NCBI GenBank assembly: GCA_965178125.1
Contig: OZ237743.1
Location: 124,001 to 188,000 of the forward strand
DNA length: 64,000 bases
Origin: Bilabrum cf. latius
Lineage: Eukaryota
Direction of reading: 5' to 3'
The position numbers and the translations under genes are program-made. Below, in pieces: positions 6,232 through 64,000 of the stretch. Position 1 is the first letter of the stretch. The number at the start of each line of letters is the position of its first letter. The notes below the pieces were generated by a model. It saw nothing but the letters and a program-made list of their open reading frames with translations. It was not told the DNA's origin and did no database searches.

Positions 6232-6533
6232 ACGTTTCTTTGAATAAATCTACATGAATTCATTGTACTAGAACTGGACCAAGCCTCTTTGCGCGGTGAA
6301 TGCAAGCTCCAGGCACCACAGATGCCAAGTTGAAGTTGGCGTTCTGCCAGTGGCAGTGCCGTGCAATTCAGTGCTCTCCCAGTTCTCTTGGTCGATCCAA
6401 AACAAGGTCGCTTCCTCCCCAAGACGACACAAATCTCACACTAGTAGGGCTAATGGGTGCCTTGAGTGGTTCGCGGCGACGATGCTGCGTGTGCTGCAGC
6501 CAGGTATCGGAGCTGTGCGGTGGCCCTGCATCG

Positions 6534-35463: not shown

Positions 35464-35804
35464 ATCAAATCAACAGACAGACGTAATATTCAGTATATAA
35501 TACAGGGGCTAACCTGGCTATTAGCTCTGCTTAGCGATCAAATACGCGGTAAATTGTGTGAGGAAAGTTGCACCGCAAGAACTGGCACTTTTCCTCTTCT
35601 TCCTCCTTTCTCGCGCTCGGGTTCCGGTTTTTGAATTGTACAGAACGTTCGATTATCACCACAGAACCCGGCTGCGCGGCAAGTGCAACCTTCAGGTTAT
35701 TGTCGCGCCATGGACCGCGTTCGCGATGCTACTTCCGGACTGAAGTCATCTTATCAATTAATATCACAGCTTGAGGCCTTGGATTAGTCTGTTAGAGGAA
35801 CCAT

Positions 35805-37686: not shown

Positions 37687-37950
37687 TTGACAGTAACCAC
37701 CCAAGATAGGTAGGCGCACGAGTTCCCCTCCCGCACCCACGCTGTGTGTTCTCCGCGCACGCATGATGCAGCGTGACGACTGCAATCCGAGTCGTGATTT
37801 CTTCGATGACTGTATTGTAGCGCGTACGATACAGTTTCTCATTAATTCTAGCGAATATAGCTAGTTACTACCGTGAGCCTTACCTAGCCTGCTTAGCTCG
37901 AAGCAAGTGCAGTAGGTTGCGCCAAATTGTGCTCGCTCACGATTTGTTGC

Positions 37951-40816: not shown

Positions 40817-43800
40817 ATGCCGTCCAAAGTACATTCCAAAGACCTAATGGGTCGTGCAGTGCACACAAAGCCCACCATGTCGGACAAGGCCCTTGGGGCC
40901 GCTCGACGTGCTTACACGAAACAAGTCCAGGCAGACTTGGCCGTTTCGCCAGAGAAATTGAAGAAAATTTGCAATGGAAACAAAGGACACTTCCCGAAAT
41001 CCGCTGTTGGAGATGCGACTACGAAGGCTGAGATTCAGAAGACTGTAAAGCAGGGGCGGCTGAGCTCAAGAACAACGCGGCACAGGCTGGACGGACGGGC
41101 AGTCAAGAACGGCGACACGTACCGAACTCGCACTGGGACATATGGAGGCAAGCAAGGAGAATTCTGGGTGAAGCAGGGCAGAGACGGAAGCGTGACCTCT
41201 GGCGGATTCAATCCCCACAGACAAAGAGACGGCCTGAGTAGGACAGGTAGGGCCCTGGTGCAGGCCCACAGGCTCGGGAGACGTATGATAGCGTCTCCAA
41301 ACATACGAAGTAAGATTATTGGAGGCGTGCTCATGGGCGGCGCTAAGGCTTTGGCGGCTCTGGGACGATATTTCCGTGGTCGCGGTGGACGAGGGCCACC
41401 ACGAGGCGGCGGCGGCGGAAGCGGGGGAAGCGGGGGAAGCGGGGGAAGCGGGGGAAGCGGGGGAAGCGGGGGAAGCGGGGGAAGCGGCGGCGGAAGCGGC
41501 GGCGGAAGCGGTCGCAATCGAGGCGGAGGGGGCTCTTTCATGATGGGGCTCTTCGGGCGTGCCGGGCGGCGCAGTGGCCTGAAGGGCATGTTCCAGGCCC
41601 TCCTGGCGAGCACCGGCCTGCTGCAGTCGTACGAATCCAGCTGCGGGGGCCGGGGCATGGGGGGGTTCAGGGCCTTTGGCCGCGGGCCGGGCGGGGTGCA
41701 GGTGCCCCGGGGCGATTTGAGGATGGTGCGCGAGGGCCCTTCTTTTGCCATCCAAGACAGGCACGGGAGAGTCGTTGTGGACGTGGTGCACAGGACCGGC
41801 CATCGGGCCTCCGTCGTTGGCGGGCCCATTGCTGCCGCTGCCGCGGGAGCTGCCGTGGAGCTGGACGCCCTTCCGTGGAGCGGCGTCGCGGGAGTGCTCG
41901 GTATGACGAGTGCAGACCTGCATGCGGCAGTGTGGCGGGAGCTGGCCACTGCCATCTGGAGCGAGGACGCGTATCCTTTCTTCTCCTTGCACTTCAACAA
42001 GGGTGCATTCATGTACCCCGTGCTGCATCCAGTCTACCGTGACACGGTGGTGGGGCACGTAATCCAGGTGCTCGACTACTTCCTCAAGGGCTTCCTGAAT
42101 GGAGGCGTGTACGACCCGGCCTTCCTGCTGGCGTGGCCCGGGGAACACAGCGGCAACACGGGCCGCGAGTTCCTACAGTAGCGCGTGAAAGACATCCGCT
42201 CGATGCTGCCAGAGGACCTACGAGCCGACTACTCCTCGCTCAGGGAAGATCTCGCGATCGCCGGTCTGCAGCAGATCGTGCGAGGGAGGGAAGGCAACGA
42301 GGCGGCAGGAGCAGCACCAGGGGATGCACCAGGGGATGCGCCCTCCGCAGCAAACGTCCGCACTGCCTTCCGAATACTGGGCACGCTTGACAACGTCTGT
42401 GTCTCGGGACAGTCCATCGTTGGCGGTCCAGGGTTCAAGGTAAAGTTCACGGTGGAGACCACGCCGGAGTACCAGCGCAAGCTGGACCAGCACATGGCCT
42501 TGCATGGCAAGGCGCAGGGCGACCATAGCAGACTACGGGCCGTGTATCAGAATGCTGCTCGCCGGGTGGAGCAGCTCATGCCCAAAGTATCCCTGTTCAA
42601 GCCGTACTATGCGGCGCTTGAGCTCATCACGATGGCGAGCGCTGTGCTTGGCACGATGAAGAAGGGGGGGCTGCGGCCCGACCTCGCACCCATGCCGCGC
42701 CGCAAAGCGGAAGCTCCCAACCGCACGCCGACCATGATGCCCCCTTTGCCGGTGCGTTACTACCACCCGCACCGCGCGTCTCTCACGGTGAAGGAGATCA
42801 TCGACCAGCTTCGAACAGAAGAGGGACTGCCACCCATGCCACCAGACGCAGCCAGGGAGCAGGAGGCACGCGCCGCCGTGCAGCCTTGCAGTCTCGACCG
42901 AGCCATGCAGCACGCGGCCGTGACTGGCGAGCCCGTGGACTCGGCCATCGTCAGCAAGGTGCAGGAGGCACTGCAGGGACGGGCCCTGGCACAGCTCCCA
43001 GAGGGGGTGCACGCGAGAGATGCCGACCTGAGGCAGGCGAAAGCCACGATCGAGAACTTTCTCACGCAGGCTGTCGTGCTGTGGGGCACCCAGGCGAAGG
43101 GCATGCCGCGGCAAGTCGCTCACGCGTTCATAAAGAGGTCAGGACTGCGCACGTCTGGGGCCTTGAGCCGGCTCCGGGATGCGGCGGGCGAGGGCAAGCA
43201 GGTCGACTCTCGCCAGCTGTCCTCTGCACTAGATGCCATAGAGGTCAGGGATAAGGACGTGGAGGAGGTGATCAACGGGCTGCAGGCCAAGGTGGGCGAA
43301 GACTGCAGCATGGACGCATACATTGCGGGGGCGCGGCGGCACCTGCCGGACCTGCTCTGCAAGGCCATCCTCTCGATAGAGGTAAGGCAGCAGAAGAAGG
43401 AGCTGAAGAAGCAAAAAGAGGCGGCGCTAAAGAGCCTGCGCAAATCTGGTCGCGAGGCACGGGAAAGGCAGGAAGCCTCGCTGCGGAAGCAGGGAGAGGA
43501 GCAAAGGCGAAAGCTGGAGCAGCAGGTGCGGGAGGCCCACGAACAGTCCCAGAAGACCGCGGATGACTCCATCGCCCATGTCAATGCGGAAGCGAAGAAG
43601 GCAAACGAATACATCGACTCGCAAATTGCGTCTGTGGGCGTTGGACGCACGGTTGACTACAGCGCGGTGTCTTCCGAACGGTCCAAGATTTCCAACTGGC
43701 AGCAAGAGCAGATCACCAAGGTCAACGAGCAGCGGGAGTAGAGTGCCAAAAGCATCGACAGGCACAGGGGGGAACAGCTCAGGCAGTTGGAAAAAAACGT

Positions 43801-46800
43801 GCAGGAAGCACTCAAGAGCATGCAGAAAGACGTGGATCGACAGGTGCGGGAGCTGGGGGAGAAAATGGACGCGGATGCAGCTGCGCGAGACAAGTCGGCC
43901 GAGGCGGATGTGCATCGCAAGCTGCTGGATTCTGCCACAGACATGGTGAAGCAGGGCTGCGACATTGTGCAGCAGGAACAGCGGCTCATGACATGCGTGC
44001 TGGTGCGGCACGAGGCAGACATCCTGCACGGAAACGTGAACGTGTCGAAGCTCGCGCTGGCCGATGCCACCTTCTTGCACGAGCAAGGCAACGACGTGTC
44101 GATCGTGGGAGGGTGCGGTGTCTCGCTCAAAGACATTGCAACCGACTCCATTGAGCTCCGGGAGCAACTGGGACCCGCCACTGCAGCCATCGCCACAGAC
44201 CTCGACGGTCTCCCGCTTAGCACTCCAGCCGCAAAGGATGGTATCGTGGGAAGCCGATTGGTCGCAAGCGCGGGTGCATTCCCCTTCCCGCTAGATGCCC
44301 TGGCATGGGCCGATGGTGGCATCACGATATCCGGAGACCGCACACGCGGGCCCAGTGGCGCTGGTAATGCTGATTTTGACCCTGCGGCGAGCGCCACTTC
44401 GGGCTCATGGGACGCAGCTACCGCCAAATCAGCGGACTCGTCGGTTGCAGCTGGCAGCGCAAGCACGGCGGCGTCCGATGCCGTGTCGGTGGGCGATCGG
44501 ACCACCGGTTCGCTTGAATCATTGCTGCATGATGACCATATCGATTGGGAGGAAGTTAGCCCTGTGGACGTATTCCGCTCGCTGGTATTTGCCATAGTAG
44601 GTGCGCCGGAGCTGGCTGCTGGCGAGTTTGCTGATGAGGTCGTGGCTGCAATACGAGAGGCTGCGAAGGAATGCTGCGTTGGCGACGAGATGGTCGCACC
44701 GCTGTCAGAGCCTGCGGACGTGTTTGGGCTGACTCCGATGCACCATGCAGCTGCGTGCGGGTCTATTTCGGGAGTTCGTGCCCTGCTGTCTATGGGCGTG
44801 GCTGTCGATCCGGTCGATGCAGACGGTGCAACCCCCTTACTGCTCGCTGTCGGGGCTCAGGATCAGCCAGAGGACCACGTGCTCGCCGTCATGGACGCGC
44901 TGCTCCGGGCTGGTGCCGACCCCAACACGCGTCTACCCAGTGGAATATCGCCCCTGTACATAGCTGCGCAGTCGGCCGAGACAGCGCGGTGCAACTTGCT
45001 GCTGGACCACAAGGCAGACCCCAACGTGCACCCGCCGGATTCAGACATGACTCCCTTGCACTGTGCTGCCGTTCATGGCATGAACGCACTCGTAGACCGC
45101 CTCTTGTCGCTCGGGGCGCGGCCCGACCAGCCTCGTCGAGACGACGGCATGACTCCGCTGCTGCTGGCGGCAGCCCACTGCCGTCCAGCCACCATCCGTG
45201 TCATTCTCGCTCGCAGCCCGGGCTCTCTCGCGGACATTGCTGCGGGGTAGAGGAGCAATGCGCTACACGCGCTCGCGGCCAAAGCTGGTGACACCAGCGC
45301 AGTAACGCAGGTACGGTGCATGGAGACTGCCCGCTCTGTTTTGGGCGCGGTAACAGAGCCTGGGCAGGTGGCGTAGCTGCTTGCTGCCAAGGATGCAGAC
45401 GGCTTGACTCCAGCCGTAATTGCGTGCCGCCGCGGGCTCGTCGAGCTGGCGAAAGACCTATCAGCACACGATCATTCCTAGGCTGCTGCCCAGGCAATCG
45501 CCGCGGAAGCTGCCAAGCTGGGCCTTCCACGGGCTTTCCAGAGCCACTCTGCACGGAGTTTGCTTCCGCCCGAGCAGATGCGCCGCGCTCTGCTTACAGG
45601 AGCATTCAGCGGAAAGGCCGAGGCAGCCGAGGCAATCTTCCGTGGAGTCAATCCTGCACAAGTCCCTCTGCTGCTGCGAGCCGCGGCAGTGCACCGCAAG
45701 GGCATGCTCCTGCACCGAATCATCGCCCGTGCCAGGAGCCTGAGGCACCGTCTCGAGCTGGGTGCTATTTGCAACGACATTGCCATCGTGCGAGAGGCGA
45801 CTGTCGATGCCAAGTGCAGCTCCAGAATGGTGGTGGATGCATTCGCAATTGCCCTGAAACACCGATCGCGCAGCGTTGCCAAATATCTGCAACACCATGC
45901 TGCTCTGGCCATTCAGTCGGATTTCAAGACCCAGTCGATGCCGATCGTCCGTGCCGCACTCCAGTCCAGGAGCACGGCGATGTGGGACATCATGACCCGC
46001 GTGGCCGACCCGTGCTGCCCACTGGACGAATAGGGCAGAACAGCGGCCCATCTGGCTATCAGTGCCGGCTGCATCCCGCTGTTCACGCGTGCGGTGAACG
46101 CTGGCTGTTCTTCGCTGGGGGCTGACGGCACTTCTACCACTCCGCTGCAGCTGGCAGTTGACAGCGATGAGCCCGAGCTCATCGCTGCCGTGTGGTGCGC
46201 ATTTCCCACGCAGGTCGAAATCACCGCGGGCAATGATGGGAGCAACGACTTGGGCGCGGCAGATCCGGAATCAGGTGGCAAACCAGCAGAGAAAATCGGA
46301 GCAGCATCTGGGGCCGGTGCAAGCTCGGCCGCACCGGCGAAGTCAGCTGCAGGCGTGGAAGTCGGCAATGACGGGAGCGACAGAAAAAATAGTGGTGCCC
46401 GTGCTGCACAGCGTCCTCGCTTATTCCACCTGCGCGGGTACCACCTCGCCGATGCCCTGATTCGCGCCCACGGCAAACAGGCAACAAGGGCACACAGGCT
46501 GCTGCAACGACTGCTGAAGACCACTTGGCTGGAGGCATCCGCCAAGGGTGTGGTGCATGACGTGCAAGATGGTGTGCAGCAAGCATTCGACCAGTCGGTC
46601 GATTCACTGTGGGGGGCCGGCGTCCGAGTCACGCAGAAGCTGCTAGAGGGAGTGCCCTCGCCGGCTTTGATGAGACGCCTGGCCGAGAATGGTCGTGGGA
46701 AGGTGGTGCTCGACACGTTCATGGCTCTTGTGCCTACTAGTGCCCCTCTGTCCCCGATCGCCAGTGCGTTGCTTAACGCAGCTATCGAAGGCGCGATTGA

Positions 46801-49800
46801 CAAGGTGCAGATTGGCGTAATCGCGCAGCTGCACCGTTGCCTGCACCCGGGGGTCGTGCGCGCACTCAGTGATGCTGCCAAGCGGCATGCTTGGGTCGGC
46901 AGGGCACTCGCGCTGAACTCCAGCGTGCTTGCTGCAGCGGCGGAGGGCAAGGCTGCTGGCTTCGTGGCTGCCATTCGGGCCCTTCCTGCCGGCGCTCAGC
47001 TGACGGGAGGGGGGATTCAAGACGAGAACGAGTCCGGCTTGCTGGATGCCATGATCAAGCACGACTCGATCGCGCTCCTGGATCGCCTCCCAAGAAAGTA
47101 CCCCCTCGGATCCGCTGATTACTCGGATGTCAGCGCATGGTTCCAGCTGCTGGGAAAGAAGGACTCGGAATCAAAAATGTGGGTGCAGGCGCTGTCCAAC
47201 GCGCGGTCCAAGGCGGCAGTGGCAGCGGCCCTGCTGCAGTCCACTGCTCAAGGTACCGTGCTGCACGTGGCATCGAAGCGGCCAGGAGGCGTTGACGCGA
47301 TTGAAACCATGCTGGACGTGCTTGCCAGCGCGCCGTCAGCCAAAGTGGCGGGGCACGGGCCGCACGTGGGTGGCAATGTGATGCATGTTGCCGCTGCCGT
47401 TCTTCCGGGGGCTGCCCCTTTGCAAGATTTTCTGCAGAAGCTGCGTCGCTCCCTTGGTCGACGGGAGGACGTGCTTGCTGGGCTGCTCCAGCAGCGAGAC
47501 TGCAGCGGAAAGACGCCGCTGCACTACACCTGTGAGCACTCGCACGACCCCCGCACTGTGCAGCTGATGGTCGAGGCCGGCGCAAGCCCCATGCGAGCCT
47601 GACGGCACCGGCAGCACGCCGCTCATGACTGCAATCCGCTCCGGATCGGACCGGGTCGCGGCAGAGGTCATTCGCCTGGCACGGTAGGAGAGCCCCGTGA
47701 GTCTATCGTACGAAGATGCGACGGGAGCGACTGCGTTTTCTCTAGCTGCGGAGCACGCCTCTGTCACCTTGCTGAGGCTACTAGCACCTTCTGTCCCAAT
47801 GGATGTGCGCAATGCCTTTGACAGCATCGGGCGGAGCGCTGTCATGCTGGCCGCAGAGTCCGGCCGAGAAGACGTGCTGCAGGTGCTGGTGGAGGACCTC
47901 AAGTGCGACCCAAGCCTTCAGACTCCCGGACGAGTGCAGCTTCCCGTTCGAAACGCCAATGAAGACGACACAGCTCGCCGCATGCTCCCGGATGAAGAGG
48001 CCGGGAGCACGGCGCTGCACGTTGCGGCGCGCGCCGGATCCACATCATGCGTGCGAATGTTGTGTCAAATGGGTCTATCTATGTCTGCAAAGAACAGCAT
48101 AGAGGAGACCCCTGCCTACCTGCTGGTCCGTTCTGGACGACACGACGCCGTCGACATCCTGGTGGAGCTGGTGGGCCTCCCAGCTCGGGCTAGCCAATCC
48201 AGGCCAGGCAGTGCAGGCATCGCATCGGCGGGCGCAGGACCAAATATTGGTAAAGAAGATGTTTCGAGCTCAGTCATGCCCCTCGAGTTGTTCTCCAGCT
48301 GCATGGAAGCTGCAGCACACGCGGACGAAGGCCCCCTCATACTGCAGCTAGTTGAAATCGGTGTTGACCCGAATTCAGTTGCAACATTCGCGTTCGGCGG
48401 AAGCCCGCTGCACACCGCGGCGTAGCGGGGCAGCTGCAACGCAATCACTGCGCTGCTGTGCGCAGGGGCAGATCCTAGCATCCGAGACAAGCACGGTCGC
48501 ACGCCCCTTCACGTTGCAGCCGCGGCTGGGAAGCTCGGGGCCGCTCGCCTGCTGCTTGCAGAGCCTGGTCAGTGGGAAGACATTGACACCGAGGCGGGCC
48601 ACGCCGTGGATCACGCAACCGCCTTGGGTCTCGCGGTCAAGAGCAGGTCCGTTGGGATCGTTGCCCTGCTTCTCTCCGCGGGGGCCTCCCCGGACGTGCA
48701 CGACTCGTCCGGCAAGACGCCTCTATAGCACCTCGCCTTGGCCGCTGCCAGTGGAGTCGCATCAAGCGACGAAATAGACATGATGGCACTGCTAGAGGAG
48801 GCATCGAAGGTATTGGCTCCTTATGGCGACTCTGTGTCTGCCAAAGGGGCAGATGCAAGGACGATGACAAGCGCTGGTGAAGGAGCACGACCAGGTTTAG
48901 GGGCTGATTCAGTAGAGCCTGCTTCAGCAATTGTATCAGCTGGCGCACCAGCTGCAGTTTCTGTTCTATCTAACGTACCACCAGTCGTGATGCAGCGGAT
49001 CAAGCACGCTGAGAAACAACCAATGGTGCTGCAATGCATGGAGGCACGAGCAAGTGCTGGCAGTCATCTCGCGCCTTCGGCTGCATCGACCAACGCGGCA
49101 ATCGCAGGGTCCGACTTCCGAAGGTTTCGTGGATCCGCGATTGCGACAAAAGGGGAATCGGTCAGCCCAGTAAAGTATATTGCATCTAGCGCATTGGTCC
49201 CCACGGAATCATCAGCATCCTCCTCATCCCCGAAACCATCGGCAAGTTCGCCCATGGCCCGGGACTCTCTGCTAGGCCGTGCCTTGGGCAGCCCGCGCTC
49301 ACCCCCGGGGCCAACAGGTGAAGCGATGGCAAGTCCTCGATCTCACTACGATACCGGGCCGTCCCGCATCCACCAAGAGATAGCGGAGGGACTGGCCGAA
49401 AGCGAGTGTCCTTTCAGTGATGTGCTGCCCGTGGCCGCCGCACGGTGGCCACCCCTGGCACTGGGGCACAGCCCGAGGGCCTGGGGCATGCTCGTAGGCC
49501 GACTGGCAGCCACCGCAGGATCAAGTGGGGTGGACATGCTGTGCAGTCGCACTGCCAAGGACGGGGCCGTAGAAGACTTGTTGAGTGTGGGGCAGCACCT
49601 GCTGGACCTTGCCTCGATTCTGTAGTACGGTCGATCTCTGGAATGCGAACGGTTGCTAAAGGAAGCGACTCAGGCACTAGCTGCTGTGAGATTACCGTAG
49701 CTCCCTGTCTAGGCCGCAGGGACGATGTCCCGCTCTCCACCTGTCCTTCCCCCCTTGAGCGGCAGCGGCGCCATGTCGCCCAGGACTCGAGTGGCTCCTC

Positions 49801-52313
49801 TCAAGCTGCATGGGTTGAAGGGGGCCAGGGGTGCAGCGGGGTCCTCAGGTGCAGTGCCACTAAGGAGCCTATTGGGCGTGCTGCGGGTAGAGTGGCAGCG
49901 CGCACTTGCCAGGAAATTCCCTGATCATGACCCGCGAGAAACAGCCAGTAGCTTCCGGTCGGCGACTTTGCCATACGGGCTGCCGGATGAAGCAGTGGGG
50001 CACATCTAGAGGCGCTTTCAGAGCCTGTCTAGAACAGAATCAGAGCTTGGTTCGTCTTCGAATCTCATCGATCACCTGAGGCGGCTGGGAGACGGCCTAA
50101 GGTCATGCCGAGGCATTCCAACGAATGAGGCAGAGTGGGCTGGGGCCGCAGCTCTGTTGGGCGCGCTGCGAGTGGCGGTCCGTGCTCACTTCAGGATCGT
50201 GCCATACACGACCTAGCTCTTCGCCATCCTTGGACTGCTGGATGTGCGGTCTATGGGAGGGGTATGCAAGCCAGATGGCAAGGGCTAGGATGCGGCGGGG
50301 GCAGCCTCTACATCTGCTGCGACTGGCAGCTCTGCAGGATGCAGCTCGCGGTCTGCATCCTCAAATCATGAAGACAAATAGCTGAACCCTTCGGAGGCCA
50401 GAGGTCGAATCGCAGAGATCAGGACGGGTGAAGGCAAGTCCATCACTATTGCGCTGCTCGTTGCATACTTGGGTCTCTGCGGCAGGAATGTTGACGTCAT
50501 CACGTCGTCTCAGTATCTCGCACAGCGTGACGTTGAGCAGTTCTCCGGGTTCTACCGCTCTGTCGGTTTAACTAGCGGGCACATATGCACTCATAGCCCG
50601 GCACCCCAGCAATTCGAGCCGCAGGTGTTGTACGGCACCAACACGGACTTCGAGTTTGCAGTTCTCCGTAAGATGCTGCGCTGGCCAGGGGCCGGTGTGA
50701 CGCGCACTGGTGAAGCGAGGCCAGCCGACGCAGTGGTGGTGGACGAGGTCGATAACTTGCTGCTGGACACGGCCGCTTCCCCTGCTCGGCTGGCCGCGCC
50801 CTCTGTGCACAACACCTCCTGGTGTTTCAAGCCGATATTGGAAGCAGTCCGCGCTGGAGTGCGCGAATCAGATGCGGTGCGGGCTGCGCTTACTTCCTTC
50901 ATGGGTGGCCGCATGGCCTCTGTTGCAAGGCGCTTCGAGGACTCCTAGCTGAACCAGTGGGTGCAGTCCGCTCGAGCCGCAGAACAAAAGACGCGGAACA
51001 AGGACTATGTGGTGCAGGACGGAAAGGTGGTCATTGTCGACTATTCCAATACGGGGCAGCTCAGATACGGCTCGCGCTGGTCCCAGGGGATCCACGAGTT
51101 TGTCGAAGCCAAGGAGGGCCTGGAGCCCGAATCGGCCAACCTGACTATCGCTTCGCTGGCGCACCCAAGCTTTTTCAGCAGGTATGATCTGCTGCTGGGA
51201 GTCACTGGAACCATGGGAGCGAAGGAGGAGAGGCAGGAAGTCGCGGGTGTCTATAAGTGCCTTTCGTTCGACGTTCCCACGCACAGGCCCCGCCGGCTGC
51301 GGCAGCTACCGATGGTCTTGCACGACGTCCCGACCCGCCGCGAGTTTGGACAGCGCGTGATTGAAGCTGCCAGCGCCGAAGCAGACAAGGGTCGGCCCGT
51401 GCTCGTTTTGTGCCTCTCTCTGCAAGATACGGTGCTGCTGCGCGAGCTGGCTGCAGCCGTCAGGCTGCCCAAGGTGCAGCTGCTGACCAAGGTCCAGGAC
51501 GAGGACGAGGAGCTGGTCGTGATGCGAGCCGGGGCCCCGGGGACCGTGACCATCGCTACGAATGCTGCTGGGCGAGGGACCGACATTCGACTCACACCAG
51601 AGTCTGTGGAGGCGGGGGGGCTCCACGTCATCGTCTCATTTCTTCCTGACAACCTGCGGGTGGAGGAGCAGGGTATCGGACGCGCTGGCAGGCAGGGGCA
51701 GCCGGGTACTGCCCAGCTGCTGCTTGACCTGCAGCGAGACCCCGGCGCAAGAGCTGTCACCAATGGAATGACGATGTTGCCGATGATCCGACATACTCTG
51801 GACGAACCGAAGCTGCGATCCATGCGCGATGACCACGTCAAGAGAGTGTCTGCGTATCGCAGTAAGCTGGCAGCCAAGGAAAAGGAGCGGTTTGCGGTCA
51901 TGGCTGCCTTCGAGCGAGATCTTGCGACTCTCGAGGGAGCCCAGTCATTGAGTAGCAGCGCGCAGGCTAGCAAGCAGCCAGCAGCGGCATCATCGTCTAC
52001 AGCATCCTCTGCGTCGGCCTCCACAGCTACAGCCCCGTCCACTGGGACAGCTCCAAGACTACGGCAAGTGCTTCTTTCCCAAGGGCGGGCGCTCCTTGCC
52101 GATCCCAAGCGGCTGCGCGGCGGCGCTGTGTAGGTGGTGCTGCAGCAGTGGGGCGTGCTGTTTGACGCAATTTGCGACAGCGACAGCGCTTCTGGTGGTG
52201 TGGGTGAGGATGGTGGCGCAATTAAGAAGTCGCCGGCAGCCCGCTATGAGGCTTGGCGGGCCGATTGGATCCCAGCTGCACCACAATAGTGGCTTGAAGG
52301 TTTAGCTACTTGA
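40817..52313 (+). CDS. Giant (~3,830 aa) protein: basic N-terminal domain, Gly linker, coiled coil, ankyrin repeats and a C-terminal SecA-like SF2 ATPase; one frameshift near 47587-47602
   Basis: Same-frame ORFs joined by about 18 TAGs. Ankyrin TPLH/TPLL repeats at about 44720-48730. SecA motifs PYTT[TAG]L, AEIRTGEGKS, YLAQRD, YGTN, VVDEVD, RWSQGIHEFVEAKE, GVTGT, ATNAAGRGTDI, GGLHVI and RVEEQGIGRAGRQG. Ends at TGA 52311-52313. The start may be upstream (40691 or 40751). Confidence 0.8.
41405..41511 (+). repeat. 9-bp tandem repeat (GGAAGCGGG)n encoding a GGS linker
   Basis: Read directly from the sequence. Confidence 0.9.
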
Positions 52314-52498
52314 CCGATCCACCATGAGCTGCGCAATCAATTCATGAAAAATCTTTGAATCTTTCCAAAACAAGTGTGCACCACAAGAGCAGCGTGCCCG
52401 TCACACTACACTCTGTCTCAGAGGCTCCACACGCTGCTAACCAAAATCGTGCGTGCCTCTTTCCCTCGCACCACAGCGGCAAGTACCTGCTTCCCAGC

Positions 52499-55400
52499 TT
52501 ACGCGCGCGCAGGGGGCGCCAGCGCGCGCTGTAGCTCCCGAATGGACACGAAGCTGTCTGCATCCGCGTCTGCAGCTCTCAGCACCTCCACAACTTCGGC
52601 GTCCGGCATGGGCAGATTCAGTCTGCCCACAAGATCTGGGAGGTCTGCCACGAGCAAGCGACCTGCCTTGCTGACGTCTAGTTGGCGGAACAGCTCGTCC
52701 GGGTCCCAGCCCTTTGCTCGTAGGGCATTTCTCACCTTCTGTACTCGCTGCTCACTGTCATGCAGCGCTCTTGAGTCCCGAACGGTAAGCAGCTTGGCCA
52801 TGGGTGAGCCAACCCACTCGACCGCCCCGGTCCGACGACGCAGGCACAGGCGCTCGAAGAACAGTTTCCGATCAGGGGTTGGAACCTTGCCGATCTGCTC
52901 TAGCGCGGCCGCAGCTGCTTCATCTGGCAAGTGCAAGTCGCAGTTGATGAATTTCCCGAGAGCGATGCGGACGTCGGAGCCGGGTGCTTTGGTGACCTTC
53001 GGCCTGCCGGCTGCATCTATGAGGGTGGAAATGGGGATGTTCCAGAGCTGTAGCTGCCCAAACCGCGAGTCCCCAGTTGCAGAAAGCTTGCAATCGAGGT
53101 GAATGGCTCGCCTTACGGCCTCTGCCTCGGCCAGCGAAAGGATGACCATGGGTGTCGGTGTCCCGAGACCCTGCCCGCCTGCAGCTGCCGTCTCGCGCGA
53201 GTCGTCGAAGGTCATGCCTACTCTGGCAATCTTGACGCTGTATTGCGGCAGGTTTGTGGCCTCCTGCAACGTGAATCGTTCAGTGAGCAGCATCCCTGGT
53301 GCGAGAGCGGAGAGCTTGGGCGCGTCGTCATCCACCTTCCAAGTCGATGCCTGAAAGGCAGAGCCGCCCAATGCCTCGCGGAGGGTCTTCTCCGCACCTT
53401 GAGCATCCCGTCTTGCTACGGCCGACTGGATGGCGGAGATTTTGGTCCTCAGCTCATCGATGCTCCAGGGCTTTGGCTCCGGTAGCTCCATGTCTGGCCG
53501 CTTGTACCAGTTCACCTGCGAATATGGCACAGCAAGCAAATAATGTAAAAGGGACAAAAATGCAGCTAGCGTTGCATTGGGGTCGAGACTAGCAAATAGG
53601 TGTGCAGTGTATATGCGTAAGATGAGCAGGAAGACCAATCCATCTCTGTCTCACATACTACAGCTCCTTCTCCTGGTCCTGCTCTCGCTCTGCCTCTTGC
53701 AGCACTTCCTGCTCCTGCTCCTACTCCTGGTCGAAGTTGTCCGCCCGCTTCGCGGCCGTGCCACCCCCACTGGTCCCATGCGCGTTGCGCTCTAGCACCG
53801 CGTCAATCCTTCGCTCCGCTATGCCTCCCCTCACGAAACCATAGAGCTCATCTCGAGCCCAGGACGCGAGAGAGACCAGAGATGCCGACTCCTGACCAGT
53901 ACCGCCTGCGCCGGCCTCCGTCGGAAGCCTCGGGGTAAAGTCCACACTCTCCCTGAAGACTGCCACCCTCTGCAGCACCTCCCGGTACTGCAGCACCAAC
54001 CCCTGCTTTGCGTACTGCCGCCCCTGGATCCCATACATCTCCAACAGGTCGTCAAAGGCCGCCCGCCTCCACACGTTCGACAAGTCCTGCTTGCACAGCT
54101 GCTGGAACTGCAAGCTCTCGTGCTCGATGCTATTGCGCACCAGCCAGCCCATCACGCTCCGGATCTTGGGATCACGAGCGAAAGCTTCCGCGCCAACTGC
54201 CTGCTTTACCAGCCCCTGCACCTCTGGCACCACACACAACCGGATGGTCTGTCCCTTTGCAATGCCTCTCATGCGCCAGGCCGCCTGAGCGGCGTCCCTG
54301 AATGTGCAGTCCTTGCCAAGGGTGAGCACGGCGCGAGCATTGGGAGCCTGCTTGATGTCTGTGCCTGTCGTGTGCGCGTGAGAGTATATGCAGAAGCGGC
54401 GATCCTTGGGCAGGCCTGCCTCGTCCAAAGGCACCGGCTCAGCTTTGCCCCGAACCAGTACCATCTTGTGGTTGTCCTCGTCCATGTAGACGCAGCCCTG
54501 CATCGTTTGCAGCCCCACCCGTAGCATGTAGGCCGCCGCCTGCCTGTTATTCATCCCGGTAATCAGCGCGCCGGCGTCGATGAGAGCGTGGAAAGGAGGG
54601 TGCGCATTCGCGATCGATTTCAGCAGGCCAGGCACGGTCCACTCGCGACCGGGAATCAGCTCGTCGCTGGAGTCCCACACCACTTGCGGGTCCGTCAGCA
54701 CGTCGAGGAACCTTCCCTCCGAACCCGGCTCGAAGTCGCACTCGCCCAGGTCCAGGGGAGCCAGGGCAGAGGGCGTTCCCGAGAAGCCGTACCTGGCGCC
54801 AAAGAGGCAGTCGGACCCTAGGTCCACGCCAGAAGAGGAAAACTTGGCCTCCTTGTGGGTAGTCACCTCGGGAAACACGTATTTTACCATCCACATGCGG
54901 ACCATGGGCCCGAACAACCGGAACAGCCGGCACGCATCGGCCATCTGTTCCGGATCTGACGGCTGCATGAACTCCAGGGGCGCGATATCTGGAGGACCCA
55001 GCTGCGCCTCCGAATAGGCAGCTTCTGAGATTCCGAGCGCTTCAGCACTCGGAAGTTGGATCGCAGTCTTGGCTTTGGCCTAGTCCAAGCTGGCCGTCCT
55101 CTGCCTGACTCGGGCAGCCTCAATCGCCCGCCAAGCCGCGCCGTACCTAGACAGCCACACCGTCCTTGCATCATCTGTCCAGTGGCCAAACTCGATCCGA
55201 GAGGGTCTCTGGCGGTGTGGCCCACTTTCGCACCCCATTTGAAACCTCTGGTGCTAGATGATCCGCGCCACGTGCCTGGGCATGAGCCCCTCATTGAGGT
55301 AGGCGGCTGTTGTGATCCCGATGAGGCAGTCGGGCTGAGCGAAGGAAGACATCTCGGAGGGGACGTCCTTCCCCACGAATGGCACGGCTGTCTTTAACCT

Positions 55401-58400
55401 CTCCTTTCCCAGCCCGTTCCCACCCAGTTCTTCCATCCGCTTGATGTCACCTGGCCGAAGCAGGCCGTACGTAACCCGGTCCACCTTGCCTAGCACGTGC
55501 GCCAGCAGGCTGTCGAGCCAGTCCAGAACGATCTTTAGCGACGCCTTGCCTGTTGGGCCAAGTTTTGGAGCAACTCGTTTGAGGGCCTACTGCGCCTGCT
55601 CATCAGTTGTGCTGGGGTCCGCCTGTAGCACCAGCGAAAGGTCAGCGCCAGAGACAGGAACAGCTTTGCTCTTGTCAGTCGTCAGGGCTCCGCAGCTCAT
55701 GAGCCACCAGACGGACCACTCCGCTGCTGCTGGCCTGAGCTCGGCGTGGTAGAAGTCCTTGCTCAGTAGCACCAGGTGAGGCGAGGACTGCAGGACGCGT
55801 TGCTCCAGTCCGGCTCGAATCACCCTGCGAAGCCGATCCATTGGTCCTCGCCCGCTCCTCATCTGGCGCAGCTTGGCTTCATCCGCAAGGTGCTCGTCCG
55901 CAGCACCTGGCGTGCCCGCGCCTGCTCCGGACTCCGCCCCCAAGGAATGCTCACCTCCTCTATTGCCACCTACAAGGGCGCAAGATTTCGGATCCCCGGC
56001 TCCTTCCAGCAAGGCTGCCATCGTGACGGTCTCCAGAAGATCAACGACATAGGTCCACCTGAATGGCCTAGGCTGCAGCGTCACGTTCTTGCCAGCGGGA
56101 TACAGCAGCTCCGACTTGAGCGGGCTTAGGATCATGTCCACCTCATCCATCAGCAAGCGACCACCCTGCGACTTGCCAAAGAGGTCAGTGATCTTTGCCA
56201 GCTCCTTCGCAGCTTCCAATGACTGCTGCTTGCTATCGTCTGACTAGCCTCCCGCCACACCCTTGCCGTCAGTACCAGCGCCGTACCCGGCTTGCTCGAT
56301 GAAGAGAAGCTGCATTGACTTGACGGCACCCGGACTGGTAAGCACCACGCCGCGCTGCTCTGCCGTATCCTCTAGTTTGCGACGCAAGGCGCCGAGGACT
56401 TCAACGCTGTCTGCAGAGTTTCTGTTGAAACCAAACGTGACGACCCGCTTTGGCATAATTCGAGCAAACGCGGCCCACATGAGGTCTTGCGTCTGGGCAA
56501 GCAGTGCAGGAGGGCACATCACTGCTGCGAGGCGCTTCCCATCCGCCATTGCGAGAACGAGGAACACAGTAAGGAAAGCCGTCTTGCCACTGCCCATCGC
56601 AAGGGAACGAACTTTGCTCTGCACGCCCGATCCGGACGGATCCAGCTGCCTAACGTAAGCTTCCAGGGCCGAAATGTCGGGCACGCCGTCCTCGTCCACA
56701 GGGACCGGGGCCTAGGAGGAACTGCCGCCTCTGAAGGACGCTTGTCTGGCGGCTGATTGCTTTGAACCAGCCGGTCCATCAGCTGCAAGCTCGCCGCGCT
56801 GGAATTGCATGGACCCAGGCAGACCGTAGAGGGGGACGCAAGCCTCTTCGCAGAAGCGACACGCCACCTCCACCTAAGCCCTGCGAAGCAGCCAGCCGTT
56901 GATGAGCTCCATCATGAGGAATCTCGAGTCCATGGATACTTCTTGCACTTCTGCGGCGCCTGCAGCCCCCTGTTCCAACTCTTTGAATTGCAGAGGCACG
57001 TCAGGAAACCTCGAGGCAAAGCTCCTAAAGCCCCTGATAGACGCAGCTAGGTCCTGCTGGGCGTATAAGAGAGCCTGTAAAGCCTCATCCGATACGGACT
57101 AGCGACCTGCAGCGGCTGCTGGGGACCCACCATGACCACTGCATGCCTTCTTGAGCATTGCTACCAGTCGCTGCGCCAGCCCAATGCACCGGTTGGCCTG
57201 CGACACGCGGTTGGCCTTGAGTGCCAATGCGTGCGTGCACTCGAGGGCAGCATGCACCTTTTCCCCGGGCATGCAGGGGTTCATGTTGAAGAGATCGAGC
57301 TCTGGGCGTGAGCTGAGTAGAGTGCCCAATAACAACTCGTCCCAGACGAGTGCGCGCTGTTTGGCCATTCGCTCAAGTCGAGTCCGTACTACCAACACAG
57401 TGGTACGCATGCTGTCGCTTCCAGCGCCCGATGCTGCAGCCCCTGCATCCCCCTGTTCATCCTGGTGGTCATCGAGGCGATTCAATGCAGCCAGCACTGA
57501 CGACAATCCCCTGCGCACATCGTCCAGGTCTGTTTGCCGCATCGCAACAAGCTCGACAAGGAGCTCCTGAAGCGTATTCAGTGCGCTGCCTGCTATGCTT
57601 GGCAGCTCGCCACAAGTTGGGAACCGCTATTTCAAGGTCCCAGCGTCAACGACCATGCACGCCATTGCCTCTTGCTACCTAGAAGCCACGATGCTCTTGT
57701 ATGTAGCGCACGAATCTTCCAGCCTATCAATCATAGAGTCGGCCACGAAAGACTTTTCGATAGGCTCCCCTGTGCCTTTGTCGAATGGCAGTTTTCCGGG
57801 CGGAACGCGGACGCTTGCCTGGGTTGCAGACAGCTGGGTTGTGTACCTCTCCGCAAGACGCCCCATGGGCATCGTTGCAAACTAGGCCAGATCGAGCTTG
57901 CTAAGCTCGACGTCCATACCGAGGCTCTGGTGCTTGTCACTTGAAGAGCCTGCGGCAGCGGATGATGTGCCTACTCGGCGGTCAAATGCCCGTAGAACCA
58001 ACGGTTTGTCCGGGCACGTGTCAAAGCAGCTGGGAGGCTCAGGCGGTAGCATATCAGACGTGACGAGCACAGCGGGGTTGTCTGCCTTCGTGGGCTTCGG
58101 CACAGGACCAGTAGGCCCAAATGAAAGGAACGTGTCGGTACGGCTGGAACCCCCCGATTTGCGCTCAATGCGCTTCTTTGGGCCGTCAACAAACGCCGAG
58201 AACCACGACTTTACCCATGACGATGTCTCCGGGCGATCCGTGTATTTCCCCAGAGGCTATGGAGGCAGTGGCCACCCGCTCGACGCGCCGTCTGTGGCCG
58301 TGGTGCCATCACAGTTGATGGATCCAGCCACAGCAGCAACGTACCAGGGGACGATCTTTCTTGAACTGACCGAAGTAGGCACGCTCCAGTCGGACTGCTT

Positions 58401-61400
58401 TGCAAACGTCCACCTCGCCAGCAGCCCCGCGAACCGCCGGCCGCACTATTTCCCGCCAGGCACCAGCTTCAGCTTAACATGCCCCAAGGCAAGCTCAATG
58501 AGGTAGCGGCCGATCCTATTATAATCCTGCTAGATGACGGAGTCGATGGTCTGCTCGATCTTACGTGAGTTGCTCGTGAGATTTCTGACCGGTTCGTAGC
58601 TACCGAATACTTGATCGTCCCAGTTGTACATGTTGGTCATGTAGAAGAAACTACCCCTTGAGCCATACTCATGTTTCTTCGGTGGCGCCGCCTCGGCATA
58701 GTTCTTCGCAGTACGCAAAACCATCTAGCCCAGCATGTCGTAGAACCCTGAACGCCTCGGTAGTCGAGCCGTCAGCTACGCTTCAAGCACGTCGCCGAAT
58801 CGAAGAGCCCGCCACTACGCAGACAACTCCAAGGCACGCTCCATCTCCGTAGACTTTGGCTCTGCGTCGGCCGTAAGCAGATCGTCGCAGGCGGACTGGT
58901 GATCGGCGCGAGAGAGTCTGCAGCAGGACTGCACGTGTCCATGAACACCAAGGTAATCCATGTAGATCGCGGTATTGGTACCCTCGAACGGCATCTTAGC
59001 GTTTCCAAACCGCAGTGCCAGAGCCAGCTTCAACCTTACTGCAAGCATGTCTGGGGTCACGTCGCTTGCAAGCCCTTCCAGCTGTGAGAGCCAGTAGGAT
59101 TCCTCCCAGGAGAGCGCCTTGTCCGTGTTTATGCTGGGCATCAGCCTCGCCGCGAGCTCGTACTCCCTTGCCCTGAGCAAACAATTGAGATAGTACAATG
59201 CTGCGCTCACCGAGGGTAACTTGAGAAACGACTCAGACACAGACACTTCCAGAAAGTAGGACCGCGATTGGGCAAACGCCAGCCACCCCGTATCTCCCCT
59301 GTGTTGCGACACGTACGTTGAGAAGGGCGCATGCTTGATGTCAGGCCTCTCCAGCGGGTGCGATGCAACGAACAAGCTGAGCCCGCCCGAATCGCTTTCA
59401 ACCAGCATGGCGTGTGGGAGACCTTTCATGAGGGAGCTGGGCCCAAGATTTGAGCCGACCGGGAGAGCCACAGGAGGGAGGTGGCCTGCTGGCTAACCAG
59501 GTGCAGCACGCGTTTCCGGACCATCGCGCTGCAAAACAGCAAGCGTATCCTCCGTGTACCGATCACATACGAACAGATCGTTACGATCTGCAAAATATAG
59601 GCGCGCGGGTCGACAATCTAGTGCGGCTGCGCCGCCCAACGCTGCACCGCCCGACGCTGCACCAGCGGGGTGCACACCGTTGGAGCTCAATGAAGTGCCC
59701 GCGCCTTTATCTTGTCTCACTAAGTCCTACAACTGTGTTTCGTTTAATTCTCTGCACAAGAGCTCGGTCTCAAGCCGCGGCATACTGACAGACTGGAGCT
59801 CACACAGCTGGCCTGGTTTGACTGCGCTGCACCACGAGATTGAGCTGACTTGCCTCGCCGAGCCCGACGCTTCCGCTGCATCGAATGTCCAAGGGAGCAC
59901 ATGGCCTAGTGACTCAGATCTCGCCAATGTGGCGGCAAGACGATCTAGTGGAGAGCCAGGGGGTGCCTGCTGCAGGTTGAGAAGCAAAGCATCCGGCTTG
60001 GTCCCGGGTGGCGCATCGACGAGACCGCTGCTGTCCGGGGTGAGCTGCAGTGCATCTGGAAATTGAGCCCTAGCAGCAGCAACCACGGCCGGGTCACCAA
60101 TCATGCCAGGAAACAAAGACTTTCTGTACAGTCGAGCGGCCCTGCGAGCCTCAGGCTCAAGGTGAGCTTGCACAACTGCAGTAGGCAAGGCATCCAGGAT
60201 ATACAGGGCATCTTCAGTCGGAGCGTGACCGGCTGCATCATCACCAGGCTCGTTTCCATCCGACTGGCTCTACTCCTAGCCCTGTTCCTCACCATCGCCA
60301 CTAGATTCATGCGCCTGCCTGCTCTCATTTCGGGTCATAGATGCAGGCGGGTACTCCCCGACGAGACGCCCGGTGGCTGCGCACAGCCACCACTGGAGCC
60401 CCTTTGAAAGCAACGCATGCGGTACAGCACCATTCAGCAGCATAGATGGAATCAGGCTGTATGCGGTCAGATCCGACATGTCCTCTCCTTCGGGTCGCAG
60501 GCGCCTAATTTCCACGCCGTCTAGTACCCTTGCCTCGGTGCCCAGATTCCCAGCAACGAAGTGGAGGAGTGTCGACACTCTGAATTTGACTTCAGCAGGC
60601 GGTAGCTGTGCGATGGAGAACCTGGCATCTGAGGTCCAGCAGGCCACGCAAAAAACTCGCCGTGCGTACTCTTGGAAGTAGTACGCATCGCATGTCCGTC
60701 TGTTTCTGCGCAGAACCAGCTTCTTGAGGATCGAACCGTCTGCCTCTGGGTGCTAGCTCACGCAGTACACTTCAACAAGGTCCGCACCACTGTTTATTTG
60801 CTCTCGGTTTGCGTACAGAGCCATGTAGCGCCCGAGTTCAGCGGCGCCATCCGAATCGGCTTCTCTCACAGCCTGCATCCACGTGTCCTGCAGAACGCTC
60901 GACACCCAGCGTTCCGGTGACGAATCGAGAGAGGGAACCACGGTCACAAACTAGTCCTCTTCGGGAAGAGCCTCGAGTGAGTCGACGTCACACGTCAATT
61001 TCATCGAATACGACCTTCTCTTGCCACTTCGCAAGTCCTCGCTCACGCCCCGACCGCGGATCCACTCCGGAAGGCCCATGCATTCGAGCGTGCCTTTGTA
61101 CTACGACGGCTTTAAGCCCTGCCAGTGGTGTATCTCCAAGTCTCCATACCCAGCAAATGCAGGCATGGAGCTAATGGCGTACTGCACCAAACTCTCATGA
61201 CGGGCCACTACGGTGCAGAAGGGGGCATCATTGCCTGCGAAGAACGTCTGGCAAGCGAGTGTGTTATTGACTGACGCAGGCAGAGGCACGACATCGCTAC
61301 CCTTGGCTGCAGTCATCCTGCAGCTCTGTGCGTCCATCACGTGCTTCCCGCTGGCATCCTCAAATGCCCCATTTGAATGCAAAGCGGGCTTGGGGGTACC

Positions 61401-64000
61401 CCACGAGGCATCGCGCTAGCTCGTGTATAACTGTCGACTCACAGAGAGCGCATGCTCAGGCACCCCGATGGTTGGCCATCCCAATGCTGACGGTCCGGCA
61501 GCTCCGGAGCCGCTTGAAGCGGCTTTTGCTGAACTGGGTTGGTCAGACGATTCGCCGGACCCGCAATCCATCGGGTGTGCGCCGCAGATCATTTTGCTCC
61601 ACGATTCGGCCCAAGCCGGGCCAGAACCCTTCTAGCACGCGACAAAGTAGCCAACCAAAGTAGCCCGAAGCGAGTCGATCGCATCGAACACCTGTGTCTC
61701 GCTCACCCTGACGAGCCTCTGCAGGTATGGAGCCTCCATCCCGTCCTGGAACTAGCTCTCTTTTGCATCGCTCGGGTGCTTCGGCGCTGAGAGTCGGTAC
61801 TTGGGTGGCTCCAATTCCATCACGTACTGCTTTCCAAGGCCGTGGAAAGTGTGGAAGAAGGCTAGGCTTCCCATGACCCGGCCGATCCCTTCGTCGCCCA
61901 TTTCCAGAGGGGCAAATCCTTGTCGGAGCAGTGCCCAGTGAGTCCGGGATAAGACCTGTAGCTAAAGATCCGCCCTCTTAGAACCCTACCGCTCGTAGAA
62001 ATCCAGGACTGGGTCAAGATGAGCAGTGATACACTCACGCATTTGGGAGCGGCATTGCCTTAACCGTTCCAGCAGTGCCTCCGTCGGCGCGGCGGGGTGG
62101 TTCGCCGGAAGCTGCAAGACTCGCGTGGCTGCAAGGAGCACTCCACCAGCAAGCCGACATGCGAAAGTAAGCGGCGTCACAAACACAGGGTTGATGTTAC
62201 CCTTGCACATCCTCGCAATTTCCTCGCAGACGGCCATCAGCGGACCCACCGTGCCCTCCGGGGCGTGGGCCAGCTCGTGCCAGAGCGACCCATACGTCGA
62301 ACCGAGAGAGACAAGGTCCGTCGGGGCATGATCAGGCATGCCTGGCAAGTGTGCACAAGCTAGTGGCACTGCGGGAGGGCCGGCGCTATCATCCCTGTCA
62401 GTCGAAATCACGCCCTGCTACAACCCAAACCTCTAGCGAGCGAAAGGGCTTCCATGAAACAGTGGCCCTGACGAAGATGCCGAACTAGCTCCTCCTCCTG
62501 TCGCGGATGCGGCAGCTGCTGCTAGTCCTGAGCCACCTGTTCCTCCCTTGGACGTGCTGCCGCTCGTCAAATCGGGGCACGCGGACTCTGCTACCGCACC
62601 GAGTCGAAACACGGAAGTCCACAGCACCTCACGGAGTTCCTCGTTGAAGAGGGCAGATCCGCGCGCCTCGGCAAAGAATCCGAGCACCAGGGGCACACGC
62701 ATGGATGACGTCACTGTCAGAGCGCTCAGCAGCTCCTGCGAATCGGTGTCCGTCAGGTAATTCCCAAAGGAATCAAGACCCTCCGCCAGCACCACATCAT
62801 CTTCATCGGCTGCACCGTCCTCGATGCGTGCAAGGACGCCGTGTGCCTCAGGAGTCATGAAACTGTGCGATGGGTAGGGTACTGTCAGACTGCATCCCTA
62901 CCGGTGCTTGTCCGCAGACCCATCAACCTTGATTCCAGCCTAACCCTTCGTGATCTTGTCGTCGAACTTGGGAGGGGTGAACGAGATCCTTGGCGACACG
63001 AGCTTGCCGGGGGTTCGCCCGATGCCACCGCCGCCGACGAGCTCTATGGCCATCAGGGCCTGTACGTCCCGAACCGCCGCGAACTCGGGGCACTTGTTGG
63101 GCACGTCGTCCGAAAGCTGCATGCAGACTCCCGCGACGAACTTGGGACAGTCTTTCTCGGGGTCTTCCATCTTCATTTTGCGGCATGCCGTTATCGCGAC
63201 GCCATTGACTGTCGGCAACCCCAGCTCAGCGGCAAAGTCGTACGTGATCTTGCTGTTGCTCCAGTTTTGGGATGCTTCTTGCATTGAAGAGCTACCGCCA
63301 CCTGTGTTCCATGCAAACGAGCCTATCAGGCGATCCAGCCTGCCTTTCGGTTTGCTGACTCGCCTAGCGCTAGCCACAGCACTTAATGCTTGGTCCTCTG
63401 CCTGACGACACCCCAGAATTCTCTGTGCAGCCACTCCAACCAGAGGGTCTTCGAGGCTCCACAGCTGCATCGGTACCTCGAGCGGCTCTCCGATGGCGGT
63501 GCTCTGCAGCAGGGTATGCGGCTCGATCTTGGAAGGGCTGAACCTTTCGGTCTTCGCACCAGGCACGGCTTCTGCGCGCAGGAGCTTCGTGACGAGAGAG
63601 CCCTCTCCTTGCGGGCATCCGTACCTCATGACCGACAGAACAAAGTACAAGACTGCAAGCGAGCACGCTTGGCGCTCGGAGACTCCAGCCGCATCTTTTC
63701 GGGGGTTGAAGTGCGTATAGCTGAGGTACTTGCGGAGGAGATCGACGGCAGAATTGCACAGGTCGAGCACTCGTTTCTGTGGCAGCGTGCCGCACGGGTG
63801 CCCGACCGTTACGGAGCTGCTCCCTGCCTTCCCCAGCATCCATCCGATCGAGTCGAAGGGCAGCCGCTGCAGTATGACGCGCTTGACAAATCGGGACCCC
63901 ATAAGCGCCCCATAGTACCCTTCCGACTGCTCCCATATCCGGTCGGCCAGCCTCGAAGCCCCTTCTATTAGGCGCAAGACGTTGTCAGAGGAATCCGTGG
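52499..64000 (-). CDS. Giant (>3,700 aa, 5' end beyond the window) DUF3638/DUF3645 P-loop protein with a C-terminal EF-hand pair; intron 53516-53654
   Basis: One frame from 64000 to 53655, with about 30 TAGs as the only stops in the segments I traced. Motifs ELINGWLLRRA[TAG]VE, MGSGKT, LMDEVD, AVPFVGKDVPS..SSFAQPD, GFSGT, LIDAGALITG, HTTGTDIK, QAAWRMR, EQE repeats, SLAEAE and EF-hand-like DADADSFVSIRE. Ends at TAA 52499-52501. Confidence 0.85.
53516..53654 (-). other. Spliceosomal intron (139 nt, GTGAG...CGCAG)
   Basis: The phase-0 junction TAT|GTG reconciles the two frames, and the interior is AT-richer than the exons. Confidence 0.8.

Follow-up and report, generated by a model that had tools for sequence, protein, structure and literature searches.

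The meaning of the codon UAG was examined here in a stretch of 64,000 nucleotides (nt) of DNA (contig OZ237743.1, positions 124,001 to 188,000 of the forward strand), which is called the window throughout, with the Q motif of a SecA-like ATPase as the central case. Judged from the sequence, UAG very probably encodes glutamine in this DNA, with UGA, the main terminator here, and UAA serving as stops, which is the pattern of NCBI table 15, and the window itself would be nuclear DNA of a GC-rich, intron-poor protist.

The counting set consists of 12 gene models with 18,259 codons, in which TAG occurs in frame 98 times, spread evenly over the fifths of the genes (18/16/27/21/16). The same frames have no TAA or TGA codons other than their ends, 2 TAA and 10 TGA as first modelled; read in its two other frames, this DNA has 97 TAA and 662 TGA in 36,494 codons, from which about 380 would be expected inside the frames. 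Since neither TAA nor TGA is found within the frames, TAG alone appears to be reassigned, and two features of table 15 are seen, namely UAG in frame within conserved genes (also in the RNA-like contigs described below) and UAA and UGA without a sense meaning. TAG makes up about 11.5% of the Gln-type codons, next to 601 CAG and 151 CAA. If TAA were read as Gln too, the CAA:CAG ratio would give about 25 in-frame TAA, and none is observed (p = 2e-11), in agreement with a first-pass annotation of this DNA, which had implied a table 15 reading with TAA still a stop. NCBI table 6, in which UAA and UAG (UAR) both encode Gln, does not describe the window, as no TAA lies inside the frames and 3 gene models end in TAA. 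With TAG taken as sense, the longest open frames reach 4324, 3514 (open-ended), 2373, 1652 and 1562 codons, and the standard code breaks every long gene in the window into pieces, thus table 15 is needed for gene calling. The genes that enter the argument are the following.

47625 to 52313, plus strand: ankyrin + SecA-like ATPase gene, 1562 codons, 13 TAG, TGA end, with Pfam SecA_DEAD, P-loop_SecA, SecA_PP_bind and Ank
52499 to 63998, minus strand: giant DUF3638/DUF3645 gene that runs off the window end, with 34 coding TAG, an intron (53516-53654) and a TAA end at 52499-52501
11737 to 24711, minus strand: gene of a giant FG-GAP/TIG membrane protein, 4324 codons, 27 TAG, TGA end
6300 to 8150, plus strand: CRT-like transporter gene, 1 TAG, TGA end
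37873 to 40466, plus strand: leishmanolysin-like (Peptidase_M8) gene, split by a 161-nt GT..AG intron

The first-pass annotation had pointed to one TAG in each of the first four genes and had quoted a short peptide around it; at all four positions TAG indeed lies in frame and in the quoted context.

50214 to 50216, plus strand: in-frame TAG at the Q-motif Gln of the SecA-like ATPase, residue 864, FRIVPYTT[TAG]LFAIL
56874 to 56876, minus strand: in-frame TAG upstream of the DUF3638 P-loop domain, residue 2375, WLLRRA[TAG]VEV
13909 to 13911, minus strand: in-frame TAG in the membrane region of the FG-GAP/TIG protein, residue 3601, KILFSHV[TAG]VV
6795 to 6797, plus strand: in-frame TAG in the CRT-like transporter, residue 166, LAIP[TAG]HKF

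The SecA-like protein scores 146 bits against Pfam SecA_DEAD (cut-off 24.6) and is similar to SecA chains of the PDB up to E = 3e-62. Its homologues were taken from an exhaustive HMMER search with 12,654 matches at E <= 0.001, the best 150 of which were used; 15 of the 150 had no match to the Walker-A pattern and were excluded from the column count. In the others, all with a recognisable Walker A, the column under the TAG at 50214 reads Q in 135/135, which bears out the earlier claim that the Gln of the SecA Q motif, the residue that binds adenine, is essentially invariant. Pairwise BLAST gives the same residue, with Q in all 79 of the 150 alignments that cover the site. The closest full relative reads PYTTQLFAILGLLD, nearly identical to the context in the window, and in a profile of 20 homologues the Q of the TAG column aligns with the Q of YRVQL in the solved SecA2 chain 6sxh_A; the 44-residue Q-motif stretch alone found no match in the PDB. 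If one insert is not counted, the Q motif precedes the Walker A lead-in by 10 residues. The arrangement typical of a SecA-type Q motif, an invariant Gln shortly upstream of the Walker A GxxxxGKT/S in SecA_DEAD, is present.

This insert, at about 50244-50402 (+), separates the Q motif from Walker A; it is a 52-residue low-complexity stretch rich in Ala, Ser and Gly with two TAGs, and hardly any of the 150 homologues has it. An intron was considered in its place, GT..AG ends being possible and the homologues being without it, and was rejected for now because a contig of sequencing run X5 runs through it unspliced. The two TAGs are probably translated, and are uninformative on the amino acid. Compared with canonical SecA, the window protein has the same SecA_DEAD, P-loop_SecA and SecA_PP_bind domains above their cut-offs, while it is fused to N-terminal ankyrin repeats and carries the 52-residue insert, and it falls, unlike the canonical translocase, in a large eukaryote-rich group of SecA-like proteins. 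Many members of this group (homologues P0024-P0172) are proteins of several thousand residues, and one from Monosiga brevicollis is called PARP by UniRef.

The other three sites have fewer homologues. The DUF3638 protein scores 88 bits in Pfam, above the curated cut-off, and residue 2375 is Q in 3/3 homologues aligned at the site (7 retrieved). For the transmembrane (TM) domain of the FG-GAP/TIG protein Pfam gives only a sub-threshold TRP match, further downstream, and a protein search with the C-terminal 945 residues found no match at E <= 1e-5. A metagenome scan for the domain gave 7 loci, in 4 of which a second collinear tblastn segment covers residue 3601 (E = 2e-5, 0.003, 0.48 and 0.009), with Q in 4/4; loci L002 and L003 are nearly identical around this site. 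One metagenome relative, L005:380-529, has 3 in-frame stop codons in its aligned stretch, and its source organism may itself be one with reassigned stops, e.g. a ciliate. The CRT-like protein scores 182 bits in Pfam, above the curated cut-off, and residue 166 is aligned with Q 7, K 4 and R 2 in 13 homologues, from which the 98%-identical fragment P0002 was excluded; the closest relative (66% identical in the alignment) reads PQHKFAVLG, with Q at the site. The first-pass annotation had taken Gln as usual at all three of these sites. This held for DUF3638 and the TM domain; for the CRT-like column, which is not invariant, 'conserved Gln' says too much, though Q is its commonest residue. The annotation had also proposed to tabulate the consensus residue of each TAG column, and this table, made from the homologue sets and not by hmmalign to Pfam profiles, has Gln at the top of all four (135/135, 3/3, 4/4 and 7/13).

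To compare amino acids over all usable columns, a likelihood was calculated for the 15 TAG columns with at least 3 homologue residues, with a pseudocount of 0.25. The log-likelihoods are Q -35.5, K -47.0, L -47.0, R -49.7, E -52.1 and Y -59.8, that is, a lead of Gln in natural-log units of 11.5 over Lys and Leu, 16.6 over Glu and 24.3 over Tyr. The same procedure applied to sense codons as a control decoded 59/61 correctly, with ATG and TGT missed. With the SecA column removed, Q still leads by 5.8. The lead nevertheless rests mainly on three invariant columns, as most TAG columns are variable; for instance, residue 795 of the SecA-like protein has K in 14/46, DUF3638 residue 2915 has R in 3/5, and one further TAG of the SecA-like gene has a mixed column.

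50946 to 50948, plus strand: in-frame TAG in the SecA-like preprotein-binding region, residue 1108, column with Q 48, K 36, R 20 and fewer of others (145 aligned residues)

The earlier statement that the amino acid is Gln rather than Leu, Glu or Tyr is thus upheld over the 15 columns, in dependence on the three invariant ones. Codon-wise comparison points in the same direction: Q is the commonest residue in 5/15 TAG columns (33%), compared with 24/83 for CAG (29%) and 4/19 for CAA (21%), and with 5/83 for AAG, 1/147 for CTG, 5/106 for GAG and 2/37 for TAC. These four non-Gln codons pooled give 13/373 (3.5%), and the difference from the TAG columns is significant (Fisher p = 0.0003).

Three TAGs in simple repeats, where Gln completes the pattern, give evidence independent of homologues.

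14848 to 14850, minus strand: TAG within a CAG/CAA run, CAG CAG TAG CAG CAG CAA, read as QQQQQQ if TAG is Gln
53721 to 53723, minus strand: TAG within a (CAG GAG)n repeat; taken as Gln, it continues the Q-E alternation without a break
2018 to 2020, plus strand: TAG heading a (GAR CAG)n repeat, TAG GAA CAG GAG CAG GAG, a Q-E alternation if TAG is Gln

Whether the TAGs are translated as they stand was addressed with contigs from four runs, which together cover all three studies concerned and were compared with the window (seven runs contain the stretch). In the leishmanolysin-like gene an intron had been predicted from the DNA, and it is exactly skipped in an X5 contig, which restores the HEIMH zinc motif.

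38757 to 38917, plus strand: spliceosomal GT..AG intron of 161 nt in the leishmanolysin-like gene, absent from the X5 contig, joint 38756/38918

Further GT..AG joints are found at 40646/40797 in X5 and at 37872/37972 (99 nt) in X7. From such spliced joints we infer that the runs hold RNA-derived sequence, and for X5 this conclusion is drawn from the spliced contigs only. A 10,845-nt X5 contig equals the DNA without any difference over 41491-52335, which includes 50214 and all 13 TAGs of the SecA-like gene, and such a letter-for-letter match argues against both editing and sequencing error. That the TAGs are not translated as such, being edited in the RNA, intronic, in pseudogenes or assembly errors, is therefore scarcely credible: the frames stay open up to 4324 codons without TAA or TGA, the contigs of the four runs agree with the DNA at the TAGs, with a single listed difference (at 39245) over the 14.6 kb compared, the X5 contig keeps the SecA-like insert, and conserved motifs run across TAGs. 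Intronic TAGs do exist, at 53589-53591 in the DUF3638 gene and twice in the 99-nt leishmanolysin 5' intron, and on the same side stand the two TAGs of the SecA-like insert that homologues lack.

Several results weigh against the reading of UAG as Gln or against parts of its evidence. Once the three invariant columns are dropped, Q stands at -33.7 against -34.1 for K and L, a tie. In the purple acid phosphatase (PAP), the TAG at residue 124 aligns with Arg in the sole solved homologue that covers the site. In the FG-GAP protein, residue 476 is a TAG where the paralogous repeats have TTC (Phe) in 10/11 and GCT in 1/11, and residues 229 and 1081 are TAGs where paralogues have TAT three times, AAT twice, and CGC, TTG, TGG and GAA once each. 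Besides, 6-8 of the counted TAGs may be non-coding (5' stretches, and one in an intron), run X5 is labelled 'RNA? (probably DNA)', and neither a tRNA with anticodon CUA nor an eRF1 gene was found within the 64-kb window. The paralogous FG-GAP repeats were tried as an internal test of the amino acid and set aside, as their columns are variable or Phe and leave the matter undecided, leaning slightly against Gln; the discordant PAP and FG-GAP results are weak and carry little weight, the repeat positions being terminal or variable.

On these grounds one may ask if TAG is a sense codon for another residue, such as Lys, Leu, Glu, Tyr or a non-standard one. The variable columns do not discriminate, with Q, K and L tied once the invariant ones are taken out, the PAP site shows Arg, the FG-GAP paralogues show Phe or Tyr, and UAG as Leu, Glu or Ser is known from other lineages (PMC11687900). 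Such a decoding is nonetheless highly improbable here in view of the invariant Gln columns in three unrelated proteins, the overall lead of Gln by at least 11.5 units, the TAGs inside CAG repeats, and the share of Q-dominated columns, which is like that of CAG and CAA and unlike that of the four other codons.

Another question is whether any gene ends at TAG, as in an ambiguous code of the type known in Condylostoma or karyorelict ciliates, where TAG would be Gln inside genes and a context-dependent stop for some of them. The frames were defined with TAG as sense, hence TAG terminators could be overlooked, only 12 gene ends are available, and ambiguous stop/sense codes are described for other organisms. 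The sole suspicious case was the tail behind TAG 3447 of the DUF3638 frame, where GC content at third codon positions (GC3) drops from about 0.8 to 0.3-0.5. Two codons past this TAG stands GTGAGA, a pyrimidine-rich ...CGCAG follows 139 nt on, and beyond it the frame continues for 338 codons with a GC3 of 0.70 to a TAA end; this second exon aligns with the C-termini of homologues P0016 (E = 2e-17) and P0017 (E = 1e-13), and this match is collinear with the one upstream. TAG 3447 was thus rejected as the terminator in favour of an intron of 139 nt (53516-53654), which contains the one non-coding TAG at 53589-53591, followed by a homologous exon. As the low-GC3 tail is the intron, TGA 53454, which lies beyond it, is not the true gene end, and the gene closes at TAA 52499-52501.

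With this correction the 12 models end with 9 TGA and 3 TAA, and a fitting TGA or TAA is available in every model. In the SecA-like protein, homologue P0025 still aligns past the TAG at residue 1555, which lies only 8 codons before the TGA, and there is no depletion of TAG toward the gene ends. In this small sample no gene end needs TAG, and no TGA is found inside the frames as would be seen in a code of the Condylostoma type, which leaves an ambiguous code very unlikely.

With regard to the mechanism of a UAG = Gln code, a tRNA-Gln with anticodon CUA, which is one base from the CUG isoacceptor, would decode UAG, since CUA pairs with UAG and not with UAA, and the affinity of eRF1 for UAG would be largely gone, with recognition of UAA and UGA retained. 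The tRNA-Gln(CUA) argument is given by Panek et al. (2017), together with a change in the GTS motif of Iotanema eRF1 (PMC5304391), and likewise by McGowan et al. (2024), where CUA suppressor tRNAs were found in metagenome-assembled genomes of ciliates (PMC11687900). The sole ARAGORN call in the window is a Thr(GGT) tRNA at 21543-21629, which lies inside the FG-GAP coding repeats and is probably a false positive; no Rfam match was obtained in the window.

The same outcome could be reached with no dedicated suppressor tRNA if the ordinary tRNA-Gln(CUG) read UAG by near-cognate pairing once eRF1 no longer competed. tRNA-Gln does mediate readthrough in organisms with the standard code, as reported in PMC13192750, and the lack of a CUA tRNA in the window would fit, though over 64 kb it is uninformative. 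Against this stand the load of 98 TAGs in 18,259 codons, with as many as 35 in one gene, for which decoding must be efficient, and the known UAG-only lineages, which carry or are predicted to carry CUA tRNAs. Near-cognate decoding is hence unlikely, and a dedicated tRNA-Gln(CUA) is the decoder that we favour for the window.

Codes with UAG alone as Gln are listed in PMC11687900 for Iotanema spirale, Protocruzia tuzeti and two phyllopharyngean lineages, and codes with UAG alone as another residue for a rhizarian (Leu) and for Scotinosphaera (Ser). The fornicate Iotanema spirale resembles the window in having UAG as Gln and UAA as a stop in the nuclear code of a non-ciliate protist, and its predicted decoder, tRNA-Gln(CUA), is the one inferred for the window (PMC5304391). 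UAA is described there as the dominant stop of Iotanema, whereas in the window TGA closes 9/12 models at about 62% GC; moreover, the best named match of the window is the stramenopile Cafeteria and not a fornicate. Protocruzia tuzeti and the two phyllopharyngean lineages are like the window in that UAG is Gln and UAA and UGA are kept as stops, while Phyllopharyngea have 27-54% GC (PMC11687900) as against about 62% here, and in the window, a 64-kb multi-gene stretch with GT..AG introns, no ciliate-like features were noticed. In the UAG-only cases described in the two papers UAA dominates, in contrast to TGA as the main stop here.

Table 6 codes, found in many ciliates, Dasycladales, hexamitid diplomonads, Streblomastix and Amoeboaphelidium (listed in PMC11687900), are alike in that a stop codon one base away from a Gln codon has come to mean Gln, and unlike in that TAA is not sense in the window. 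Genetic code 15 of crAss-like and other phages likewise has TAG as Gln with the other two stops kept; however, these phages have suppressor tRNAs in bacterial hosts (PMC9523058), while the window is eukaryotic nuclear DNA with spliceosomal introns.

A full-text search of limited literature found no report of a UAG-only-Gln code in a stramenopile or bicosoecid, the relevance of which hangs on the uncertain placement of the host. The CRT-like protein has as its best named relative a protein of Cafeteria roenbergensis (51% identity), and other named matches are scattered, in Pelagophyceae for the DUF3638 protein and in Monosiga for the SecA-like one; because of this scatter the organism is left unplaced, and a stramenopile affinity, suggested by such matches, is a lead only. 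It is an evenly balanced prospect that the code change represents an independent and unreported origin of UAG-only-Gln in a GC-rich protist outside ciliates and metamonads, possibly a bigyran stramenopile, with UGA as main stop. If so, reassignment of UAG in a GC-rich genome would be hard to explain by codon capture under AT pressure, and routes through an ambiguous intermediate or a release-factor change would be favoured. Few nuclear codes give UAG and UAA different meanings, and those that do bear on how eRF1 distinguishes the two; an example with high GC and UGA as main stop would broaden the circumstances known to permit UAG capture, and a culturable host would be a source of a natural variant of eRF1 that leaves UAG alone.

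Public protein sets already contain pieces of these genes. P0002, P0023 and P0178, which are 97-98% identical to the CRT-like and SecA-like proteins of the window, begin shortly after an in-frame TAG: a 444-aa fragment is 98% identical to the CRT-like protein and has a length that fits a start past the TAG, and a 368-aa SecA-like fragment, 97% identical, begins 28 residues past TAG 1108. Starts just after TAGs suggest that these fragments are products of gene calling with the standard code.

GC content along the window is 58-70%, and Pfam supports 8/12 gene models. The families are all of eukaryote type: CRT-like, purple acid phosphatase, leishmanolysin, DUF2828 + DUF7788, FG-GAP + TIG, DUF3638 + DUF3645, and ankyrin + SecA_DEAD/P-loop_SecA/SecA_PP_bind. 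The first coding exon of the leishmanolysin-like gene holds 3 further in-frame TAGs, at about 38203, 38323 and 38386; exon 1 found no match in the PDB.

The genes are closely spaced. In the stretch 47600-47627 the TGA of a 2373-codon ankyrin gene is followed after only 22 bases by the ATG that opens the SecA-like gene; a single X5 contig spans both genes, which means either very tight packing with overlapping transcripts or a single transcription unit. The end of the DUF3638/DUF3645 gene lies 186 bases from the stop of the convergent SecA-like gene. In the region 31978-35500, a 1039-codon frame on the plus strand without Pfam match runs antisense to the 1161-codon DUF2828/DUF7788 gene (-); long antisense frames of this kind are a by-product of the high GC and are not to be counted as genes. 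At 41400-41490 (+), a (GGC AGC)n tract coding GSGGSGGSGG is a place where contigs of all four compared runs break or join oddly, likely a point of assembly collapse. Finally, the FG-GAP/TIG gene contains at 21000-24400 (-) at least 11 near-identical tandem units of about 69-70 residues each, alike even in codon choice, with TTC at the same position in 10 units, which suggests recent expansion or homogenisation of the repeats.

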